Sequence record: PQ615101
DNA: 64,000 nucleotides
Direction: 5' to 3' (one strand)
DNA from: Shigella phage SP21535
A program made the translations under genes and the position numbers. The first letter of the stretch is position 1. Every line of letters begins with the position of its first letter. This document shows, piece after piece, positions 1 through 62,742 of the stretch. Below the pieces are notes generated by a model. It had not been told where the DNA came from. It made no database searches and was given only the letters and a program-made list of their open reading frames with translations.

Positions 1-167
1 TTATTGCGTATCTTTTTAATATAATCACCGGAACCTATATACTTGTCATTTTCTAAATCAAAATATCTAGATTCATGTTTACCAATATAAACACGTACTA
101 ATCCTTTCGGATTAGTAACGGTTGTTTTATATATGTATCTAAATTGAACAGTGTTAGATTTTTTCAT
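1..167 (-). CDS. GIY-YIG (seg-like) homing endonuclease, N-terminal part only; gene continues past window start
   Basis: Minus-strand ATG at 165-167 behind GAGGTG; translation MKKSNTVQFRYIYKTTVTNPKGLVRVYIGKHE..YIGSGDY resembles segB N-terminus. Confidence 0.55.
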   Translation of the reverse strand, partial: MKKSNTVQFRYIYKTTVTNPKGLVRVYIGKHESRYFDLENDKYIGSGDYIKKIRN

Positions 168-185
168 AATTCACCTCTGAATTAT

Positions 186-1916
186 TTATAAACCTACGTC
201 TATACGGCTACCATCAATTGTGTATTGACCAGATGAAATAGAACTCATAGATGCCATTTTTTCTGTCCAATCACCACCAACGTCCCAATCAACTGTCCCA
301 GCAACTTTCCAAGAAAGATTTCCATTTACTGTATTAGTCTGGTTTCCTTCAACTAAAGTGGTAGCATCCCCTTTAACTGTAATGTCAGCATTACCTTCAA
401 CTACAATAGTAACATTACCTTTAACTAGGATAGTTCCATTACCTTCAACTGTCTTAGTTTCATCGCCACGTACAAATATTGTATTGCTTCCATCTATTTG
501 GTGGAGACGATTATCCATGTTGTAATAAATTTCTGACCCACCGACGTTAGTCTTTTTATCGCCAGCTACCAAAAAATTACCATCAGCATTTGTTATATCA
601 TACAAATTATCAACAGTTTTTCTTGTTCTTCTTCCTGACGGTGATACTTCCTCATATGTTCCAGTCGGATGAACTAATCTGTATCGTTCTTGTCCCGGGG
701 TATCGTCAAATTCCTGAATATGACCGCTTTCAGTTTCCATTGTGTGAACATACGGATATTCACCTTTATATGAAGAAACAGGTTCTTTAAATAAAATTCT
801 CGAATCATTCGGAATAGGAGGGTCAGCTGGATCAGAAGACTTTGCTACAGCAGCAGCCATTGCTGACAAAGACCTAGCCGGTGTTTTCACTTCAATACCG
901 TATGATTCCAAATTACCGGTAAGAATAATCATGGTAACACGGGATGCACGGCCTTTTGTTTGTTGATACCACAATGAATCACGACCAGCTTTATATGCTT
1001 TTTCCCAATCTCCGGCTAACATAGCAGTTAACATTGTGTTAAATTTAGCTACACCGCCAACACCCATTTGGAATGCCATATTTTCTAATGCCATTTGACG
1101 AGAACGATTAACTGCCTGCCAAACTGGGCCAACTTTAGAATGTGATTTAATGTCACGTTGCATATCAGCTAAATCACGTTCAAATAAAGTTACCGCTTCT
1201 TCCATTGTAATAGAACCTGGATTTCCGGTAATTTCACGACCAACTTGTTTTGATAAAACTTTATTAATTTGGGCCATATCACGAACTGGCTGCTTCATGA
1301 TAAGATGACCAATACCAATTGTCGGATATCCTTCGGTATCCCAATAAACTTTTAGTCTTAATCCTTCATCGCGGCGAAGCATTTCAGCCATTGACATATT
1401 TGGATTATCATCAGTTGGAATCTCTGATAGTGGTCTATCATCAGGATTTATCGCAGTGTCTAAATTACTATCTTGGATAATATTAGAAGACGAATCATAT
1501 CCTACTTCTCCGCCTTGGTTTAATACGTTAGTATCATTTCCTAGACGTCTAGGATACTGTCCAGTCGGGTCAGAAAATCCTTCAAGTCTATTAGGCTTTT
1601 CGCGAACTATTCCACCATACGTGCCAAGGACAATTCCGTTAGTTTTCCATTTGTCTAAAAAATGACCATAAACTCTAGTTCCTTCTACCGGTCCAGTAAC
1701 AGAACCTCCAATTCCAGACATTGCTGCAGAAGTTATAGGTTGAATAACTGACATCCATGGTAATTTATCAGTTGGAATACCCATTACATCGCCTTGCGCT
1801 CTTTGAGGTGGATGCAGACCAACCACACGAACACGAACACGACCTAATTTTAATGGGTCCATTCTATCTTCAACAACACCAACAAACCAGTTGAGGTTAT
1901 TACTTATCATTTCCAT
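186..1916 (-). CDS. 5: baseplate hub / tail-associated lysozyme gp5
   Basis: 576 aa; internal T4-lysozyme-like domain (MAEMLRRDEGLRLKVYWDTEGYPTIGIGHL) and C-terminal VxGxxxxxV beta-helix repeats. Confidence 0.93.
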   Translation of the reverse strand: MEMISNNLNWFVGVVEDRMDPLKLGRVRVRVVGLHPPQRAQGDVMGIPTDKLPWMSVIQPITSAAMSGIGGSVTGPVEGTRVYGHFLDKWKTNGIVLGTYGGIVREKPNRLEGFSDPTGQYPRRLGNDTNVLNQGGEVGYDSSSNIIQDSNLDTAINPDDRPLSEIPTDDNPNMSMAEMLRRDEGLRLKVYWDTEGYPTIGIGHLIMKQPVRDMAQINKVLSKQVGREITGNPGSITMEEAVTLFERDLADMQRDIKSHSKVGPVWQAVNRSRQMALENMAFQMGVGGVAKFNTMLTAMLAGDWEKAYKAGRDSLWYQQTKGRASRVTMIILTGNLESYGIEVKTPARSLSAMAAAVAKSSDPADPPIPNDSRILFKEPVSSYKGEYPYVHTMETESGHIQEFDDTPGQERYRLVHPTGTYEEVSPSGRRTRKTVDNLYDITNADGNFLVAGDKKTNVGGSEIYYNMDNRLHQIDGSNTIFVRGDETKTVEGNGTILVKGNVTIVVEGNADITVKGDATTLVEGNQTNTVNGNLSWKVAGTVDWDVGGDWTEKMASMSSISSGQYTIDGSRIDVGL

Positions 1917-2490
1917 AAGATTTCTCCATTATACGTATAAGGTCGTTCATAAATGAATTAATGTCTGATTTTGCTATTATTTTTATTTGACGAAGTTTTT
2001 CATTTTCAAGAACAGCAGCTTCATACGTATCAACAGCAGCAAGTGCTCCTTCATATTGAGGATATTTTCTAGCTTTATCGCCTTTATCATACCAAACATA
2101 TGGATTATCATCGTATGATATTAAATTATAAAATTTTTCACCATTCTCATTCACGTGATATACTATTTGGTCTCCACCTACGTTTTTGTATTTTTGTATA
2201 GATGCTTGATAAGCAGCTTCTTGCGAAGTAATCCATCCATAATACGGATCATAATTATCATTACACATCAATAAAACCCAATACAACTGTGGATTTCCAT
2301 ATATAGCATTTGCTAATTCTTCCGGGCGTGGTGAACCTTTAATATAATAAGTACGTAAGCGGTATCCCGCAAGAGCGCGTTTGAAATAGTCTTTATAGTT
2401 TCTAAAAATATCTGTCATAGGAATAGTCGGCGCGTTTTTATTCACCGTTTTGGCCGCATATTCAATCGGATCAAAAAATGTAAAGAGCAT
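1900..2490 (-). CDS. 53: baseplate wedge protein gp53
   Basis: 196 aa (T4 gp53 is 196 aa), directly upstream of gene 5 on the same strand, late promoter in front. Confidence 0.8.
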   Translation of the reverse strand: MLFTFFDPIEYAAKTVNKNAPTIPMTDIFRNYKDYFKRALAGYRLRTYYIKGSPRPEELANAIYGNPQLYWVLLMCNDNYDPYYGWITSQEAAYQASIQKYKNVGGDQIVYHVNENGEKFYNLISYDDNPYVWYDKGDKARKYPQYEGALAAVDTYEAAVLENEKLRQIKIIAKSDINSFMNDLIRIMEKSYGNDK

Positions 2491-2503
2491 GGGCCCTCCT
2501 GTT

Positions 2504-2511
2504 TATAAATA
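2504..2511 (+). promoter_or_regulatory. late promoter TATAAATA for gene 4
   Basis: Exact TATAAATA 26 nt upstream of gene 4 ATG. Confidence 0.6.
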
Positions 2512-2518
2512 TATTATC

Positions 2519-2526
2519 TATTTATA
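2519..2526 (-). promoter_or_regulatory. late promoter TATAAATA (minus strand) for genes 53 and 5
   Basis: Reverse complement reads TATAAATA about 29 nt upstream of gene 53 start. Confidence 0.6.
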
Positions 2527-2537
2527 AGGAGAATCCA

Positions 2538-2990
2538 ATGGCATATTCTGGAAAATGGGTTCCTAAAAATATATCAAAATACAGAGGTGACCCTAAAAAA
2601 ATTACGTATAGATCAAATTGGGAAAAATTCTTTTTTGAATGGTTAGATAAAAATCCAGAAATTATTGCATGGGGTAGTGAAACAGCAGTAATTCCTTATT
2701 TTTGTAATGCAGAAGGGAAAAAACGTAGATACTTCATGGATATTTGGATGAAAGATTCTTCTGGACAAGAATTTTTTATTGAAATAAAACCTAAAAAAGA
2801 AACACAACCACCAGTTAAACCAGCACATCTAACAACTGCAGCGAAGAAAAGATTTATGAATGAAATTTATACATATTCCGTTAATACTGACAAATGGAAA
2901 GCAGCACAATCTTTAGCTGAAAAGCGTGGAATAAAATTTAGAATTTTAACAGAAGATGGATTACGAGCTCTTGGCTTTAAGGGGGCATAA
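2538..2990 (+). CDS. 4: head completion protein gp4
   Basis: 150 aa, matches T4 gp4 length and position between 53 and 2. Confidence 0.8.
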
Positions 2991-3814
2991 TGGCTATTTT
3001 TCAAATAATTAATGAAAGCACTCCCCAAGTTCCAAAGGTTAAGCAATCATTAAACGAAAAGAAATGGATTCAGATAGGTCTTGAATACAAAAAGGCCAAA
3101 GCAAAAGGAATGACAGGAAAGCAATTTGCTGAAGAAAGAGGAATCAAATACTCTACGTTTACTTCGGCAATGTCAAAATATGCTTCAGGAATTAAAACAG
3201 CCGAAAAGATTCAAAAACTTGAATCAAAACCAATGAATAAACTCAATAAGCAAGAAAGACAACTGCTTATGATAAATTCATTCAGACAAACATTGCGTGA
3301 TAAAATTCGTAATGAAGGTGCAGCAATTAATAATAAAACCAGAAAGTGGTTTGCTGAAACTATTAAGCAAGTAAAAGGACATAAAGTTGTTCGCCCGCAG
3401 CCGGGACGAATATATGCTTTTGCTTACGATGCTAAACACAAAGAAACTCTTCCTTACTGGGATAAATTTCCTTTGATAATTTACCTCGGTTTAGGTAAAC
3501 ATAATTTAATGTACGGATTGAACTTGCACTATATTCCACCTAAAGCTCGTCAGCAATTTCTAGAAGAGCTTTTAAAGCAATATTCAAATACACCTACTAT
3601 TACTAATAAAACGAAATTAAAAATTGATTGGAGTCAAGTGAAAGGATTTAGGGGTGCAGACCAAATGATTAAGGCATATATACCTGGTAATATTATGGGT
3701 AGCCTTGTTGAAATCGCCCCGAAAGACTGGGCGAACGTTGTGTTAATGCCACTCCAAAGCTTTTACTCCAAAGGAAAACGTTTCTCTGCAAACAAAGTCT
3801 GGTCAAATATCTAA
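2990..3814 (+). CDS. 2: DNA end protector protein gp2
   Basis: 274 aa, matches T4 gp2 length and synteny. Confidence 0.8.
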
Positions 3815-6918: not shown

Positions 6919-7206
6919 ATGATTCTTTATGCGAAAGTATCATCCATTGAAAATGGATATAAATATGATCAAGAAGCAGCTAAAGCCTTGATTGATGATT
7001 ATGGCGTTTTAACATGTTTTGAAGTTGAAAAGGTTTATGTTGACCGTTCATCTTCTCAAGTTAAATTAGTGAAGGAAGACCGTAAATTTAATACAGTAAA
7101 TTTTGATTTCTTTATTGAAACAGAAAAAGGTCCTCTTGAATATGATATTTTCAAGAATCCTTTGGGTCTTGAATGCATCGTAAGTATGTATCATCATAAA
7201 TGGTAA
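6919..7206 (+). CDS. hypothetical protein
   Basis: 95 aa ORF, ATG overlaps preceding stop region. Confidence 0.55.
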   Translation: MILYAKVSSIENGYKYDQEAAKALIDDYGVLTCFEVEKVYVDRSSSQVKLVKEDRKFNTVNFDFFIETEKGPLEYDIFKNPLGLECIVSMYHHKW

Positions 7207-7303
7207 ATATGCTTTAAGAATTATTTGTTATTATTAACTCATATCGCACTGATTAATACCCTCTATCATCAAGGGTTCTTGTTAGAGAGCCTTTGTTAAT
7301 AAT

Positions 7304-7376
7304 TGGGAATTAGCCAAGTTGGTAAGGCATAGCACTTTGACTGCTAGATGCAAAGGTTCGAGTCCTTTATTCCCAG
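7304..7376 (+). tRNA. tRNA-Gln (anticodon UUG)
   Basis: Cloverleaf folded by hand: acceptor TGGGAAT/ATTCCCA, anticodon loop cTTTGac, T-arm GGTTCGAGTCC. Confidence 0.8.
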
Positions 7377-7377
7377 C

Positions 7378-7464
7378 GCGAGAATGGTCAAATTGGTAAA
7401 GGCACAGCACTTAAAATGCTGCGGAATGATTTCCTTGTGGGTTCGAGTCCCACTTCTCGTACCA
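7378..7464 (+). tRNA. tRNA-Leu (anticodon UAA), long variable arm, CCA encoded
   Basis: Acceptor GCGAGAA/TTCTCGT, anticodon loop TTAA, T-arm GGTTCGAGTCC, ends ACCA. Confidence 0.75.
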
Positions 7465-7470
7465 AAGTTT

Positions 7471-7542
<72 letters not shown>

Positions 7543-7554
7543 AAATTTAATTTA

Positions 7555-7628
7555 CTCCGTGTAGCTCAGTTTGGTAGAGCGTCTGCTTTGGGAGCAGAAT
7601 GTCGCAGGTTCAAATCCTGCCGCGGAGA
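7555..7628 (+). tRNA. tRNA-Pro (anticodon UGG)
   Basis: Acceptor CTCCGTG/CGCGGAG, anticodon loop tTTGGga, T-arm GCAGGTTCAAATCCTGC. Confidence 0.8.
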
Positions 7629-7630
7629 CT

Positions 7631-7717
7631 GGAGGCGTGGCAGAGTGGTTTAATGCACCGGTCTTGAAAACCGGCAGTCGCTCCGGCGACTCATAGGTTC
7701 GAATCCTATCGCCTCCG
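7631..7717 (+). tRNA. tRNA-Ser (anticodon UGA), long variable arm
   Basis: Acceptor GGAGGCG/CGCCTCC, anticodon stem CCGGT/ACCGG loop CTTGAAA. Confidence 0.8.
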
Positions 7718-7724
7718 TAATTTC

Positions 7725-7797
7725 GCTGATTTAGCTCAGTAGGTAGAGCACCTCACTTGTAATGAGGACGTCGGCGGTTCGATTCCGTCAATCAGCA
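7725..7797 (+). tRNA. tRNA-Thr (anticodon UGU)
   Basis: Acceptor GCTGATT/AATCAGC, anticodon stem CCTCA/TGAGG loop CTTGTAA. Confidence 0.8.
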
Positions 7798-7803
7798 TAT
7801 CAA

Positions 7804-7875
7804 GGCCCTGTAGCTGGAAGGTTCAAGCAAGCGACTCATAATCGCCAGATGGTGGTTCAATTCCACCCAGGGCCA
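7804..7875 (+). tRNA. tRNA-Ile (anticodon CAU, presumably modified to read AUA as in T4)
   Basis: Acceptor GGCCCTG/CAGGGCC, anticodon loop cTCATAa, T-arm GGTTCAATTCC. Confidence 0.75.
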
Positions 7876-7916
7876 TATTTTGGGAACATAAATACTCTTA
7901 GAAATAGGAGATATTT

Positions 7917-8582
7917 ATGTTCCATTACACTTATAAAATAACAAATAAAATTAATAATAAAATTTATATTGGTGTGCATTCTACCGAAAATTTAGATGAT
8001 GGATATATGGGTTCTGGTAAATTATTAAAAAGAGCCCAAGACAAGTATGGTATAGAAAATTTCTCTAAAGAAATATTAGAGTATTTTGATGATAAAGAAT
8101 CTATGCTTGAAGCCGAGAAAAATATTGTCACAGAAGAGTTTTTAAATAGACCAGATGTGTATAATTTAAAACTTGGCGGTGAAGGTGGATGGGACCATAT
8201 AAATATTCCTGGGATGCTAAACCAGAAGAAAGATGCTAGCTTAAAAGGAGCTAAATCGTTTAAATCACGTTTTGAAAATGATATTTTACTTCAAGAAAAA
8301 TATCGTAAAATTGGTTCAAATGTATTTAAACGTTTGTGGTCAACTCCTGAATACAAGGAAAAATTTTTAAATAATAGCAGATTTTTAAATAAGCATCATA
8401 CTCCTGAAACTATTAATAAAATGAAAGAAATTCACGCTAAAAATAATCACCAGAAAGGAGAAAAGAATTCCCAATTTGGTATGATGTGGATTCATTCATT
8501 AGATGAAAAAGTTTCTAAACGTATTAAGAAAACTGACCCAATTCCAGAAGGATGGTTTAAAGGTCGAAAAATGAAATTTTAA
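7917..8582 (+). CDS. segB: GIY-YIG homing endonuclease SegB
   Basis: 221 aa inside the tRNA cluster as in T4; YKITNKINNKIYIGVHSTENLDDGYMGSG GIY-YIG motif. Confidence 0.85.
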   Translation: MFHYTYKITNKINNKIYIGVHSTENLDDGYMGSGKLLKRAQDKYGIENFSKEILEYFDDKESMLEAEKNIVTEEFLNRPDVYNLKLGGEGGWDHINIPGMLNQKKDASLKGAKSFKSRFENDILLQEKYRKIGSNVFKRLWSTPEYKEKFLNNSRFLNKHHTPETINKMKEIHAKNNHQKGEKNSQFGMMWIHSLDEKVSKRIKKTDPIPEGWFKGRKMKF

Positions 8583-8585
8583 TTA

Positions 8586-8662
<77 letters not shown>

Positions 8663-40627: not shown

Positions 40628-41830
40628 ATGAAAGTATGTATTTTTATGGCTCGAGGTCTTGAAGGTTGTGGTGTAACAAAATTCTCACTCGAGCAACGTG
40701 ATTGGTTTATTAAAAATGGTCATGAAGTGACTTTGGTTTATGCTAAAGATAAATCATTTACTCGTAATTGCGCGCATGATTATAAATCATTTTCAATTCC
40801 AGTTTTATTGGCAAAAGAATACGATAAAACACTTAAGCTGGTAAATGATTGTGATATTCTAATTATCAATTCAGTTCCTGCTACTTCGGTTGAAGAAGAC
40901 ACTATTAATAACTATAAAAAAATTATTGATAACATTAAACCTTCTGTTCGTGTTGTAGTTTATCAACATGACCATTCTTCTCTTTCTTTACGCCGAAATT
41001 TGGGATTAGAAGAAACTGTTCGTCGAGCTGATGTTATTTTTAGTCATTCTGACAATGGTGATTTTAATAAAGTTTTAATGAAAGAATGGTATCCAGAAAC
41101 AGTTTCTCTGTTTGATGATATTGAAGAAGCACCGACAGTATATAACTTTCAGCCTCCTATGGATATTGCGAAGGTTCGATCAACCTACTGGAAAGATGTT
41201 TCTGAAATTAACATGAATATCAACCGTTGGATTGGTCGTACGACTACATGGAAAGGCTTTTATCAGATGTTTGATTTTCATGAAAAACATCTTAAACCTG
41301 CAGGACTAAGTACTATTATGGAAGGTCTGGAACGTTCTCCAGCGTTCATTCCTATTAAAGAAAAAGGAATTCCATACGAGTATTATCGTCTTCATCAAGT
41401 AGACCAAATTAAAATTGCTCCTAATTTGCCAACGCAAATTCTCGACCGTTATGTAAATAGCGAAATGCTTGAACGCATGAGTAAATCCGGATTTGGTTAT
41501 CAGCTGAGTAAATTAGATAAAAAATATCTACAACGTTCTTTAGAATATACTCATCTCGAGCTTGGTGCATGCGGAACAATTCCAGTATTTTGGAAATCTA
41601 CGGGCGAAAATTTGAAATTCCGTGTTGATAACACTCCGTTAATTTCTCATGATAGCGGTATCGTTTGGTTTGATGAAAATGACATGGAATCAACATTTGA
41701 ACGTATTAAAGAACTGTCATCTGACCGAGCTCTTTATGACCGTGAACGCGAAAAAGCTTATGAATTTTTGTATCAGCATCAAGATTCAAGCTTCTGCTTT
41801 AAAGAACAGTTTGACATTATTACAAAATAA
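40628..41830 (+). CDS. agt: DNA alpha-glucosyltransferase
   Basis: 400 aa, same length and position as T4 alpha-gt. Confidence 0.85.
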   Translation: MKVCIFMARGLEGCGVTKFSLEQRDWFIKNGHEVTLVYAKDKSFTRNCAHDYKSFSIPVLLAKEYDKTLKLVNDCDILIINSVPATSVEEDTINNYKKIIDNIKPSVRVVVYQHDHSSLSLRRNLGLEETVRRADVIFSHSDNGDFNKVLMKEWYPETVSLFDDIEEAPTVYNFQPPMDIAKVRSTYWKDVSEINMNINRWIGRTTTWKGFYQMFDFHEKHLKPAGLSTIMEGLERSPAFIPIKEKGIPYEYYRLHQVDQIKIAPNLPTQILDRYVNSEMLERMSKSGFGYQLSKLDKKYLQRSLEYTHLELGACGTIPVFWKSTGENLKFRVDNTPLISHDSGIVWFDENDMESTFERIKELSSDRALYDREREKAYEFLYQHQDSSFCFKEQFDIITK

Positions 41831-52232: not shown

Positions 52233-52973
52233 ATGATTAATAACTCTATGACAGTTGAAGAAATCCGTCTTTATTTGGGAATTGCATTAAAGGAAAAAGA
52301 TTTCGTAATTGATAAAACCGGTGTTAAAACTATTGAAATTATTGGTGCATCATTTGTAGCAGATGAACCTTTTATTTTTGGCGCTCTTAATGATGAATAC
52401 ATTCAGCGTGAACTTGAATGGTATAAGTCTCAAAGTTTGTTTGTTAAAGATATTCCAGGTGAAACGCCAAAGATTTGGCAACAGGTAGCATCTTCTAAAG
52501 GCGAAATTAACTCGAATTATGGTTGGGCCATCTGGTCAGAAGATAACTATGCTCAGTATGACATGTGTTTAGCTGAACTTGGTCAAAATCCTGATTCTCG
52601 ACGTGGTATCATGATTTATACTCGTCCATCTATGCAGTTTGACTACAATAAAGATGGTATGTCAGATTTCATGTGTACGAATACAGTACAGTACCTGATT
52701 CGTGATAAGAAAGTCAATGCAGTGGTTAACATGAGAAGTAATGATTGCTGGGCAGGCTATCGTAATGATTATGCATGGCAAAAATATGTACTAGATAAAT
52801 TAGTATCTGATTTGAATGCAGGTGATTCAACTCGTCAGTATAAAGCAGGTTCCATTATATGGAATGTCGGGAGCCTTCATGTGTATTCCCGTCATTTTTA
52901 TTTGGTTGACCATTGGTGGAAAACTGGCGAAACTCATATTGCGAAAAAAGATTATAACGGTGAGTGGAAATGA
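52233..52973 (+). CDS. 42: dCMP hydroxymethylase gp42
   Basis: 246 aa as T4 gp42; thymidylate-synthase-like fold. Confidence 0.85.
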   Translation: MINNSMTVEEIRLYLGIALKEKDFVIDKTGVKTIEIIGASFVADEPFIFGALNDEYIQRELEWYKSQSLFVKDIPGETPKIWQQVASSKGEINSNYGWAIWSEDNYAQYDMCLAELGQNPDSRRGIMIYTRPSMQFDYNKDGMSDFMCTNTVQYLIRDKKVNAVVNMRSNDCWAGYRNDYAWQKYVLDKLVSDLNAGDSTRQYKAGSIIWNVGSLHVYSRHFYLVDHWWKTGETHIAKKDYNGEWK

Positions 52974-53812
52974 TTCAATTCGTAATTCCAAGCTATCAAC
53001 GCGTAGGGGCAGTTTCTGCCCTTGATATGTTTCCGACTGATTATGAACCTCATATTGTAGTACGTGAACATGAAGAAAAAGCTTATTATGACGCTTACGG
53101 GTCTAGAGCTAAAATTATAACTATTCCTGATGATGTTAATGGAATTGCTGGTACTCGTAAAGCAATTACTGATATGTATGCAGGTCAACGAATTTGGATG
53201 ATTGATGATGATACTACTATTCGTATGAGTTCAATACGAAAGAGAGACGATAAACGGCGTGTAGATAAAGTCAATCAATTGACTCGTGAGCAATTCTATG
53301 AATTAATTCAATACGTTGAGGATGCAATGGATTGCGGGTATTATCATGGTCATGCTCGTTTACCAATTTTTAAAATTACTTCATCTTGGGGTAATTATCG
53401 TGAAAATTCATATGGATTCACGAATACATGGTATGATTTAGGAAAACTTACAACAGAACAAATTGGGTATGGAAAAATTGATTTATGTGAAGATATGTAT
53501 GCATTTCTCAATTTAATTAATCAAGGTTATCCGCATTTGGCCTTGTTCAAATATCTAGTTGTATCTGGAAAAGCACAAGCTCCTGGCGGATGTAGTTCAA
53601 TTCGTAGTAATTCAAAACATAATAGAGCTCTTGAGCAAATCAATAGAGAGTTTCCAGAGCAAGCTCGTTGGAAAACATCGAATATTGAAAAACGAAAATC
53701 GTTGGGTGAAGAAGATGAACCGCTAAAGGTTCTTCGCATGTGTGTTTCGCGTAAAGAAAAATCAGAAGCATTTCATAAGTTTAATGCTATTCATCCAATA
53801 GCAGTTGATTAA
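52970..53812 (+). CDS. glycosyltransferase (DxD type), not T4 beta-gt
   Basis: Track ORF 52964..53812; ATG 52970 overlaps gene 42 stop; IWMIDDD motif; unlike the 351-aa T4 beta-gt that occupies this locus. Confidence 0.6.
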   Translation: MIQFVIPSYQRVGAVSALDMFPTDYEPHIVVREHEEKAYYDAYGSRAKIITIPDDVNGIAGTRKAITDMYAGQRIWMIDDDTTIRMSSIRKRDDKRRVDKVNQLTREQFYELIQYVEDAMDCGYYHGHARLPIFKITSSWGNYRENSYGFTNTWYDLGKLTTEQIGYGKIDLCEDMYAFLNLINQGYPHLALFKYLVVSGKAQAPGGCSSIRSNSKHNRALEQINREFPEQARWKTSNIEKRKSLGEEDEPLKVLRMCVSRKEKSEAFHKFNAIHPIAVD

Positions 53813-53889: not shown

Positions 53890-54819
53890 ATGTCTATTGC
53901 AGATTTAAAATCCCGTTTGATTAAAGCTTCCACTTCTAAAATGACTGCTGAACTGACTACATCTAAATTCTTTAATGAAAAGGATGTAATCCGTACAAAA
54001 ATCCCAATGCTTAATATCGCTATTTCTGGCGCGATTGATGGCGGCATGCAGTCTGGTTTAACTATTTTCGCAGGGCCTTCTAAACACTTTAAATCAAATA
54101 TGTCTTTGACTATGGTTGCGGCATATTTAAACAAATATCATGACGCAGTTTGTCTATTCTATGATAGCGAATTTGGTATTACTCCAGCTTATTTGCGATC
54201 CATGGGAGTTGACCCGGAACGAGTAATTCATACGCCAATTCAGTCAGTTGAACAGCTGAAAATTGATATGGTGAACCAGCTTGAAGCTATTGAGCGTGGT
54301 GAAAAGGTTATTGTATTCATCGACTCAATCGGTAATATGGCTTCTAAGAAAGAAACGGAAGATGCCTTGAATGAAAAATCTGTGGCAGATATGACTCGTG
54401 CTAAATCACTGAAGTCATTATTCCGTATTGTTACTCCTTATTTTAGCATTAAAAATATTCCATGTGTTGCGGTTAACCATACAATTGAAACAATTGAACT
54501 GTTTAGTAAAACCGTGATGACAGGTGGTTGTGTTATTGCTGGTACTAAAATCCAGATGTCCGATGGTTCTACTAAAGCAGTTGAAGATATTCGTCCAGGT
54601 GAGCGTGTTAAAACCATGGTCGGTGATAATGAAGTAACTTATGTTTGGGACCCCGAAACTCTGGCTGAAGGTACTCCTGAATGTTTCGAAATTGAATTCG
54701 AAGACGGTTATAAAGTAACTACTTCAGATACTCACAAGTTCCTGGTAATGGTTAAAGACATTCCAACTTGGGTTGAAGCTAAAGATTTAGTAGCTGGAAT
54801 GGATTGTGTTGTAAGGTAA
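53890..54819 (+). CDS. uvsX: UvsX recombinase N-terminal fragment (residues 1-213) fused in frame to a putative intein N-half
   Basis: First 213 aa match T4 UvsX up to ..FSKTVMTGG (Walker A GPSKHFKS); then 96 aa starting with Cys; ends TAA TAA. Confidence 0.85.
   Translation: MSIADLKSRLIKASTSKMTAELTTSKFFNEKDVIRTKIPMLNIAISGAIDGGMQSGLTIFAGPSKHFKSNMSLTMVAAYLNKYHDAVCLFYDSEFGITPAYLRSMGVDPERVIHTPIQSVEQLKIDMVNQLEAIERGEKVIVFIDSIGNMASKKETEDALNEKSVADMTRAKSLKSLFRIVTPYFSIKNIPCVAVNHTIETIELFSKTVMTGGCVIAGTKIQMSDGSTKAVEDIRPGERVKTMVGDNEVTYVWDPETLAEGTPECFEIEFEDGYKVTTSDTHKFLVMVKDIPTWVEAKDLVAGMDCVVR
54529..54816 (+). other. putative split-intein N-terminal half (Int-N, 96 aa)
   Basis: Begins CVIAGTKIQMSDGS (block A Cys1), contains TTSDTHKF (block B TxxH); absent from T4 uvsX. 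Confidence 0.65.
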
Positions 54820-54822
54820 TAA

Positions 54823-54864
54823 ATATGGGTACCGGACTAATGTATATTTTTGAGGTACCCATAT
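54823..54864 (+). promoter_or_regulatory. hairpin sequestering the endonuclease RBS and start codon
   Basis: Perfect 11-bp inverted repeat ATATGGGTACC (54823-54833) / GGTACCCATAT (54854-54864), 20-nt loop; 3-prime arm covers GAGG SD and A,T of ATG 54863. Confidence 0.6.
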
Positions 54865-55585
54865 GAATTTTGTCTATAAAATTGTGTTCAACGATAGAAT
54901 TAAAAACGGCACTCCGCCATATTACTACATAGGGAGCAAGACAAATGCTTCTTATGTAGATGGTAAGATTATTGACGCCCACGGTCGTGAGTACTATGGC
55001 TCATCGAGATATCCCGGATATCATGATTTTATCAATAATGTTACTGTTGAAATATTGGAGCAATATGATGATATTAAACACACTAAACTGCTAGAGCGCG
55101 AAAATTTCTATCAGAAACAAGTAAATGTTAAAACAAATCCAGATTATTTTAATTTAGATTATGCTTGTGGGCATAATTCATATGCTAATGCTGATTTTGC
55201 ATCATACAAGCATTATATAACAGGTAAATGTATTCGTCTTGAAAGAAACCATCCGCTTGTTAAATCTGGTGTGTATGTTGGCGTCACAAAAGGCGTGAAA
55301 TCTTCTGATGAACACCGCAAGCACATATCAGAAGGTATTACCGGAGAAAACAATGGGTTCTATGGTAAGAAACACACTAAAGAAACAATTAATAAAATAT
55401 CAGAAAAAGCAAAGAAAAGATTAAAGCATTCCCATCCTAGACAAAAAGGTGTTATCATAAACGGTATTGAATACCGGGGCGTCAGACCTGCTGCAAGAGC
55501 GTTGGGAATTAATCCTAACACAATTATCAACAAAATTAAAGCTAATATAAAAGGATGGGCTTATGCAGTAGATGCACGCGGTTAA
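54863..55585 (+). CDS. free-standing GIY-YIG homing endonuclease between the two uvsX fragments
   Basis: 240 aa; VYKIVF..YYIGSK GIY-YIG-type N-terminus, NUMOD-like linker repeats, C-terminal helix-turn-helix-like region. Confidence 0.75.
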   Translation: MNFVYKIVFNDRIKNGTPPYYYIGSKTNASYVDGKIIDAHGREYYGSSRYPGYHDFINNVTVEILEQYDDIKHTKLLERENFYQKQVNVKTNPDYFNLDYACGHNSYANADFASYKHYITGKCIRLERNHPLVKSGVYVGVTKGVKSSDEHRKHISEGITGENNGFYGKKHTKETINKISEKAKKRLKHSHPRQKGVIINGIEYRGVRPAARALGINPNTIINKIKANIKGWAYAVDARG

Positions 55586-55693
55586 GGCATTCGAAGATAT
55601 GGTAAAAGAATTTGGAATGAACATGACAATCAAGATTATGCTTTCATGAAATATGTATATTGAAACTAGCTACTACGAAACACAAGGTAAAGT

Positions 55694-55798
55694 ATGAAAA
55701 TTAAATCTGTTAAATCTGTTGGTAAAAAAGAAGTCTATGATTTGTCTGTTGCTGACGTCGAGCATTATGTTTTAGAAAATGGTATCGTTACACACAAC
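55694..55798 (+). other. putative split-intein C-terminal half (Int-C, 35 aa)
   Basis: Ends His-Asn followed by Thr +1 extein residue; block F/G-like VYDLSVADVEHYVLENGIVTHN. Confidence 0.65.
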
Positions 55799-56341
55799 AC
55801 AGGCGTAATGTATTCGGCTGATACTGTATTCATTATCGGTAAGCGCCAGATTAAAGATGGTTCTGATCTTCAGGGGTATCAATTTGTTCTAAATGTAGAA
55901 AAATCTCGTACCGTTAAAGAAAAAAGTAAATTCTTTATTGATGTTAAATTTGACGGTGGCATCGATCCTTATTCTGGATTGTTAGATATGGCTCTTGAAT
56001 TAGGATTTGTGGTAAAACCTAAAAATGGCTGGTATGCTCGTGAATTTCTTGACGAAGAAACAGGCGAGATGATTCGCGAAGAAAAATCTTGGCGTGCAAA
56101 AGATACCAACTGCACTACATTCTGGGGTCCTTTATTTAAGCATCAGCCATTCCGAGATGCTATTAAACGTGCTTATCAGTTAGGTGCTATTGATAGTAAT
56201 GAAATTGTTGAAGCTGAAGTTGATGAATTAATTAACTCAAAGGTTGAAAAATTTAAATCTCCAGAAAGTAAAAGTAAATCAGCAGCTGATTTAGAAACTG
56301 ACCTAGATCAGTTAAGTGATATGGAAGAATTTAATGAATAA
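55694..56341 (+). CDS. uvsX: putative intein C-half (35 aa) fused in frame to UvsX C-terminal fragment (180 aa)
   Basis: Own AAGG SD and ATG; ..VYDLSVADVEHYVLENGIVTHN then TGVMYSADTVFIIGKRQ.. matching T4 UvsX C-terminal region. Confidence 0.85.
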   Translation: MKIKSVKSVGKKEVYDLSVADVEHYVLENGIVTHNTGVMYSADTVFIIGKRQIKDGSDLQGYQFVLNVEKSRTVKEKSKFFIDVKFDGGIDPYSGLLDMALELGFVVKPKNGWYAREFLDEETGEMIREEKSWRAKDTNCTTFWGPLFKHQPFRDAIKRAYQLGAIDSNEIVEAEVDELINSKVEKFKSPESKSKSAADLETDLDQLSDMEEFNE

Positions 56342-60823: not shown

Positions 60824-62163
<1,340 letters not shown>

Positions 62164-62223: not shown

Positions 62224-62742
62224 ATGGCTCACTTTAATGAATGCGCTCATTTGATCGAAGGTGTTGATAAAGCAAATCGTGCATATGCTGAGTATATTAT
62301 GCACAGTATTGACCCATTGCAGGTTATGCTTGACATGCAGCGGCATTTACAGATTCGTTTGGCTAATGATAAACCAGAAACAAATCGTCATCCCGATTCA
62401 CTTGAAACTGCAGGAGAAGTTCTTGCTTGGCTGCGAAACCAAGACGATTATATCGCAGACGAAACTCGCGAGTTATATACTTCTCTTGGTGGTATGAGTA
62501 ATGGTGAAAAAGAAGCTTCTGCTGTATGGAAACCTTGGAAGAAACGTTATTCTGAAATGCAATCCAAGAAAATTCAAGATTTATCTCCTGAAGATCAACT
62601 TGAAATTAAATTTGAACTGATTGATCAATTTCACTTTTTCATGAATAAATTCATTGCTCTTGGAATGTCAGCTGAAGAAATCTTTAAACTTTATTATCTG
62701 AAAAATGCTGAAAATTTCGCTCGTCAAGACCGAGGTTATTAA
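62224..62742 (+). CDS. 56: dCTPase/dUTPase gp56
   Basis: Track ORF 62209..62742; ATG 62224 behind AAAGGAAA gives 172 aa (T4 gp56 171 aa). Confidence 0.75.
   Translation: MAHFNECAHLIEGVDKANRAYAEYIMHSIDPLQVMLDMQRHLQIRLANDKPETNRHPDSLETAGEVLAWLRNQDDYIADETRELYTSLGGMSNGEKEASAVWKPWKKRYSEMQSKKIQDLSPEDQLEIKFELIDQFHFFMNKFIALGMSAEEIFKLYYLKNAENFARQDRGY

Follow-up and report, generated by a model that had tools for sequence, protein, structure and literature searches.

A probable T2/T6-type beta-glucosyl-HMC-alpha-glucosyltransferase gene between gene 42 and uvsX of Shigella phage SP21535

Our results indicate that an open reading frame (ORF) of Shigella phage SP21535, at 52970..53812 (+) of the 64,000-nucleotide stretch of DNA analysed (record PQ615101; the whole stretch is called the window below), very probably encodes a beta-glucosyl-HMC-alpha-glucosyltransferase of the T2/T6 type (ba-GT; gene ba-gt or ggt; TAGT in Pfam), which makes gentiobiosyl-hmC from alpha-glucosyl-hmC. 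A preliminary description of this DNA had read the locus as the T2/T6-type arrangement, in which a second glucose is added to alpha-glucosyl-hmC, and in substance it was right. The enzyme is long known, and Winkler and Rueger reportedly cloned the T2 and T6 genes in 1993. What we describe is the usual gene at its usual place with its usual partners, and it is already published as such. The window comes from a Tequatrovirus and is identical to no record; compared over 24 kb, it is closest to HY03 (95.5% identity, 98% coverage), BYEP01 (96.3%, 96%) and T2 (96.2%, 93%). Gene identity, context, conserved residues, fold and selection were established in this analysis, and the chemistry and the defence phenotypes are taken from the literature.

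The ORF is uninterrupted and codes for 280 aa counted from the ATG at 52970. A protein of 282 aa had been proposed for 52970-53812; the position holds and the length does not, since 282 aa is reached only from an upstream GTG at 52964, two codons outside those limits. The ATG was preferred, and the GTG start dropped, because this ATG and the TGA stop of gene 42 overlap (ATGA), a Shine-Dalgarno-like GGTGA stretch precedes it, and it corresponds to the start of all the annotated homologues examined, those of T2, EL, HY03 and fPS-2, each of which begins at the equivalent ATG and spans 843 nt. A GC-rich hairpin (GGGGCAG-TTT-CTGCCCT; 53004..53024, +) lies 35 nt into the ORF, directly before the codon for an in-frame Met20. 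It was picked up by a terminator scan, and in Yersinia phage fPS-2 the matching region at the 5' end of the ORF bears a terminator annotation. The surrounding 91 nt fold no better than shuffled sequence (z=-1.09), and the hairpin was rejected as a feature on that ground.

The placement of the gene between gene 42 (52233..52973, +) and uvsX (from 53890) was correctly described. The same gene order surrounds ba-gt in T2, T6, EL and HY03, and EL shares with the window the order 43, imm, 42, TAGT, uvsX. HY03 and fPS-2 have an additional ORF of ~213 aa that separates gene 42 from ba-gt (353..994 of the compared segment in HY03; g042c, 1..304 of the compared segment, in fPS-2). This ORF, possibly a mobile insert, is lacking in the window, T2, T6 and EL, where gene 42 and ba-gt overlap by ATGA.

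Alignment to the T2 and T6 enzymes bears out the proposed kinship. Over 280 aa the window protein has 98% amino acid identity to the T2 copy (AP018813) and 98% to the copies in both T6 records (AP018814 and MH550421), from which it is separated by 5-7 substitutions. The T2 and T6 enzymes also share with it the length of 280 aa, the start, the ATGA overlap, the position before uvsX, the alpha-gt partner and the conserved motifs. Identity to the copy of phage EL (vB_Eco_EL, OZ034682, Durham collection) is 99% (276/280); EL has S202-H203 before a conserved GG, as opposed to A202-Q203 in the window, T2 and T6. The protein matches Pfam PF20691 (TAGT) with 41.2 bits, above the curated cut-off of 27.5, and the PHROG 842 profile, named beta-glucosyl-HMC-alpha-glucosyltransferase, with E=1.3e-88. 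No NCBIfam model matched it, and a PDB sequence search returned no solved relative, even up to E 1.

Searching 1.84 billion representatives with a profile gave 2143 members of the TAGT family at E<=1e-3, 743 of them at E<=1e-10, and conservation was assessed in an alignment of 100 diverse members, down to ~20% identity, all matching PF20691. R11, D80, D175, G186 and G207 are invariant in this alignment (100/100), and D79 (98/100), D81 (99/100), G206 and R212 are kept in 98-99% of the members. The window protein has every one of these residues. The IWMIDDD motif reported earlier is present at residues 75-81 (R-I-W-M-I-D-D-D, residues 74-81), and its triplet D79-D80-D81 is encoded by GAT GAT GAT at 53204..53212 (+). 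The conservation of this triplet, together with the GT-A-type architecture discussed below, agrees with the description of the protein as a DxD-type glycosyltransferase. D79-D81 would form the site that binds the metal and the diphosphate of the UDP-sugar. E174-D175 is encoded by GAA GAT at 53489..53494 (+); E174 is kept in 78/100 members, and the invariant D175, which lies where helix 174-184 begins in the structural model, is a candidate for the catalytic base in an inverting GT-A mechanism. These catalytic roles of individual residues are putative and follow from the way inverting GT-A enzymes usually work.

The AF2 model built from 100 sequences (pLDDT 95.1) is a single domain that resembles GT-A enzymes most closely in structure, so that in the model the fold is that of the GT-A nucleotide-diphospho-sugar transferases. 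A first model from 10 sequences was of moderate quality (pLDDT 73.5), and the rerun with 100 sequences left the conclusion unchanged. GT-A enzymes of the GT2 family, such as SpsA, TarS/TarP and the cellulose and hyaluronan synthases, have only 7-16% identity to the window protein, and the acceptor of ba-GT is a sugar on DNA. The Pfam GT2 profile PF00535 does not match the window protein, and only 1 of the 100 family members matches it. Judging from the model, ba-GT works like a GT2 enzyme and has a similar fold, but it is filed separately. Compared with T2, T6, EL and HY03, the window gene has 30-38 synonymous and 5-8 non-synonymous differences (dN/dS 0.04-0.06), values that point to strong purifying selection.

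At the syntenic place T4 carries its 351-aa beta-gt, as had been noted, and segA is found there too. The lack of resemblance between the window protein and T4 beta-gt was confirmed, with a best BLASTP match of E=3.0 and no match to PF09198, and a tblastn search of the whole 64-kb window with T4 beta-gt gave nothing better than E=9.6; homology to T4 beta-gt was rejected on these results. The two enzymes share the place between gene 42 and uvsX, the use of UDP-glucose and the beta linkage made on modified phage DNA (PMC13216743), but T4 beta-GT (PF09198) is a GT-B enzyme with two Rossmann domains, whereas the window ba-GT is modelled as a single-domain GT-A enzyme, and T4 beta-GT acts on bare hmC, whereas the acceptor of ba-GT is alpha-glucosyl-hmC. 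The preliminary description took T4 as the reference state and the window as a departure from it, and this has to be reversed. Megablast finds ba-gt, with 90-99% identity, in 479 phage records from T4-like phages of Escherichia, Shigella, Yersinia, Salmonella and Citrobacter, and T4 beta-gt in only 29. A 2026 survey found that the common arrangement is alpha-GT or beta-GT plus TAGT, and that alpha-GT occurs with beta-GT in only 6 of 753 genomes (PMC13216743). T4 is therefore the exception, and ba-gt is the Tequatrovirus norm.

The position shared with T4 beta-gt would fit a functional substitute for beta-GT, an enzyme that beta-glucosylates bare hmC directly. It has also been reported that many phages with neither alpha-GT nor beta-GT have a solitary TAGT homologue (PMC13216743), so some members of the family must use another acceptor. 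For the window enzyme such an activity is very improbable, given that phages with a 95-99% identical gene show no beta-glucosyl-hmC by HPLC/MS (PMC13390438), and that T6 and T2 keep ~25% bare hmC, which a beta-GT-like activity would fill (PMC11078745; bioRxiv 10.64898/2026.02.25.707755). Moreover, the deletion mutants T6 delta-ba-gt (its DNA included) and T6 delta-g-gt have the properties of alpha-monoglucosylated phages (PMC11078745; bioRxiv 10.64898/2026.02.25.707755).

The reading of the gene as a ba-GT that extends alpha-glucosyl-hmC places it in a pathway whose other genes lie in the window. Gene 42 encodes the dCMP hydroxymethylase that supplies the hmC precursor, a protein of the thymidylate-synthase fold (PF00303, E=3.6e-15; 94.7% identity to T6 gp42 over 246 aa). 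Gene 56 (62224..62742, +) encodes the dCTPase/dUTPase that excludes unmodified dCTP from the precursor pool (tblastn with T6 gp56: 97.7% over 172 aa, 62224..62739). The DNA alpha-glucosyltransferase gene alpha-gt (40628..41830, +; PF11440, E=2.4e-236) is conserved, as had been claimed, with 99% identity to the T2 protein and 91.5% to that of T6. A homologue of the Dam methyltransferase is encoded at 61384..62163 (+; 95.8% to T4 Dam over 259 aa). In the proposed sequence of events, gp42 would make hm-dCMP and gp56 would remove dCTP, so that hmC replaces C in replicated DNA; alpha-GT would attach glucose from UDP-glucose to hmC through an alpha linkage; and ba-GT, an inverting GT-A enzyme with the DDD motif, would add the second glucose from UDP-glucose, beta-1,6, onto the alpha-glucose to give gentiobiosyl-hmC. 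This last reaction is established for the T6 enzyme by biochemical work and by deletion mutants (PMC13216743, PMC11078745; bioRxiv 10.64898/2026.02.25.707755), and the 98-99% identity to the enzymes of characterised relatives suggests that the window enzyme performs it as well. GT-A/TAGT enzymes are diverse, and the related T4-like Mosigvirus phages use arabinosyltransferases (PMC13216743, PMC13390438), but the chance that the window enzyme transfers a different sugar (arabinose or another hexose) or uses a non-DNA acceptor is close to nil when its nearest relatives, at that same level of identity, belong to phages with chemically defined gentiobiosyl-hmC; furthermore, no sugar-nucleotide biosynthesis genes were noticed adjoining ba-gt.

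Several studies give the composition of DNA in phages with this gene set. Gentiobiosyl-hmC has been measured in EL and nine other Tequatrovirus phages (PMC13390438). In EL, HPLC/MS found hmC, alpha-glucosyl-hmC and gentiobiosyl-hmC at ~1:2:2 and no beta-glucosyl-hmC, and seven other Tequatrovirus phages with alpha-GT and TAGT have ~1/3 hmC and 2/3 gentiobiosyl-hmC (PMC13390438). Carriage of a Dam-like gene was reported to set the group of EL, BGP and Geo, with the ~1:2:2 ratio of hmC, alpha-glucosyl-hmC and gentiobiosyl-hmC, apart from the Tequatrovirus phages with near-fully gentiobiosyl-hmC DNA (PMC13390438), and the window has a dam homologue too. The classical values for gentiobiosyl-hmC are 5% in T2 and 72% in T6 (PMC11078745). 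From the nucleoside data of EL and the other phages with alpha-GT and TAGT, the virion DNA of the window phage is predicted to be a mixture of hmC, alpha-glucosyl-hmC and gentiobiosyl-hmC, with gentiobiosyl-hmC as a major component and unglucosylated hmC making up roughly a quarter to a third; the actual modification ratio we infer. Beta-glucosyl-hmC is predicted to be absent, as no beta-GT is encoded within the 64-kb window; a beta-gt in the rest of the genome is improbable, given how rarely alpha-GT and beta-GT occur together (6 of 753 genomes).

How far diglucosylation goes is not determined by the gene alone, given that T2 and T6 differ so widely with ~98% identical proteins and that the Durham phages form two classes by ratio. 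It might then be proposed that ba-gt contributes little in the window phage, through low expression or a weak allele, and that its DNA is T2-like, mostly alpha-monoglucosylated with a few percent gentiobiosyl-hmC. T2 itself, with a 98%-identical gene and classically ~5% gentiobiosyl-hmC, lends this some support, as does the closer likeness of the window alpha-gt to that of T2 than to that of T6. Nevertheless, we regard a weak contribution as unlikely. The enzyme has 99% identity to the one of EL, a phage with ~40% gentiobiosyl-hmC in its DNA, and ba-gt is under strongly purifying selection. In addition, the four T2 records examined all have His at position 11, whereas the window enzyme has Arg, as do T6, EL and HY03.

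The change of Arg11 to His in T2 affects a residue that is kept by all 100 members of the diverse alignment. It was found in all four T2 records, at 7283-8125 (-), 286-1128 (-), 295-1137 (-) and 2228-3070 (+) of the respective segments, and we hypothesise that R11H could explain the classical ~5% gentiobiosyl-hmC of T2 against the 72% of T6. Both T6 records carry lesions of their own. In MH550421 (ba-gt at 7138-7980 (-) of the compared segment) codon 10 is changed from CAG to TAG, and the annotated product is a protein of 261 aa that starts from Met20; in AP018814 (7135-7974 (-) of the compared segment) one GAT of the GATGATGAT run is lost, which reduces DDD to DD. These lesions are odd, T6 being the phage that defines the gentiobiosyl phenotype, and they may be stock-specific mutations or sequencing errors. 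The window gene is free of both the amber codon 10 and the DDD-to-DD deletion. It is tempting to propose, tentatively and as a reading less likely to be true than false, that ba-gt alleles, natural and laboratory ones alike, set the ratio of mono- to diglucosylated hmC and that the gene has been repeatedly weakened or lost: the 5% of T2 would come from R11H, the T6 stocks would have been independently damaged, and the intact window allele would lead to high diglucosylation like that of T6 or EL. If this is true, the window gene would still be an ordinary one, and what is new would be the rule that links allele to phenotype.

The neighbouring uvsX is uninterrupted in EL, whereas in the window (53890..56341, +) it is a fractured gene, with a split intein and a free-standing homing endonuclease. 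The first part (53890..54819, +) codes for residues 1-213 of UvsX and, after them, an N-intein of 96 aa with Cys as its first residue. The last part (55694..56341, +) codes for a C-intein of 35 aa with HN at its end, after which come Thr and residues 214-393 of UvsX; compared with T2 UvsX, the two exteins meet precisely at G213|T214. Between them, at 54863..55585 (+), lies the gene for an endonuclease of 240 aa with an N-terminal motif of GIY-YIG-like type (YYYIGS, recognised in the sequence), a Pfam NUMOD3 match and matches to homing-endonuclease PHROGs. Its derivation as a copy of T4 SegA was rejected (E=0.023). The same arrangement was found in 8 of 411 matched phage records, which represent six phages (two of them in both GenBank and RefSeq), namely SYGD1, BYEP01, HY03, ELT1, pSe_SNUABM_01 and RPN226, with more distant instances in some phages of Enterobacter, Salmonella and Klebsiella. 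The RefSeq record of HY03 annotates the pieces and leaves the intein unmentioned. Fractured genes of this kind are known, and UvsX is absent from the host proteins listed by Dassa et al. 2009 (PMC2677866); our literature search found no paper on a split-intein UvsX. Elsewhere in the window, a T4-type cluster of eight tRNA genes (7304..8662, +) comprises those for Gln, Leu, Gly, Pro, Ser, Thr, Met-CAT and Arg, and a 221-aa ORF (7917..8582) lies between the CAT-anticodon tRNA and tRNA-Arg, the place of the homing endonuclease segB in T4.

The earlier suggestion that the modification would alter restriction sensitivity is supported by published work on T6. The T6 delta-ba-gt phage is more sensitive to Brig1, and its DNA can be degraded in vitro by this glycosylase (PMC11078745). 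The deglucosylase BapA does not remove glucose from gentiobiosyl-hmC, and the DNA of ba-gt-deleted T6 is its substrate (bioRxiv 10.64898/2026.02.25.707755). The disaccharide would hide alpha-glucosyl-hmC from defences that recognise the monosaccharide, and it protects against Brig1 (in vitro) and BapA. GmrSD-type enzymes still cut such DNA, and the residual hmC of a phage without beta-GT leaves it open to hmC-specific enzymes such as Brig3 (PMC13216743, PMC11078745, PMC13390438; bioRxiv 10.64898/2026.02.25.707755). The finding adds no new biology, and its use lies in annotation and in the choice of therapeutic phages. The presence of ba-gt predicts the chemistry of the DNA, and through it the fate of the phage against modification-dependent defences.
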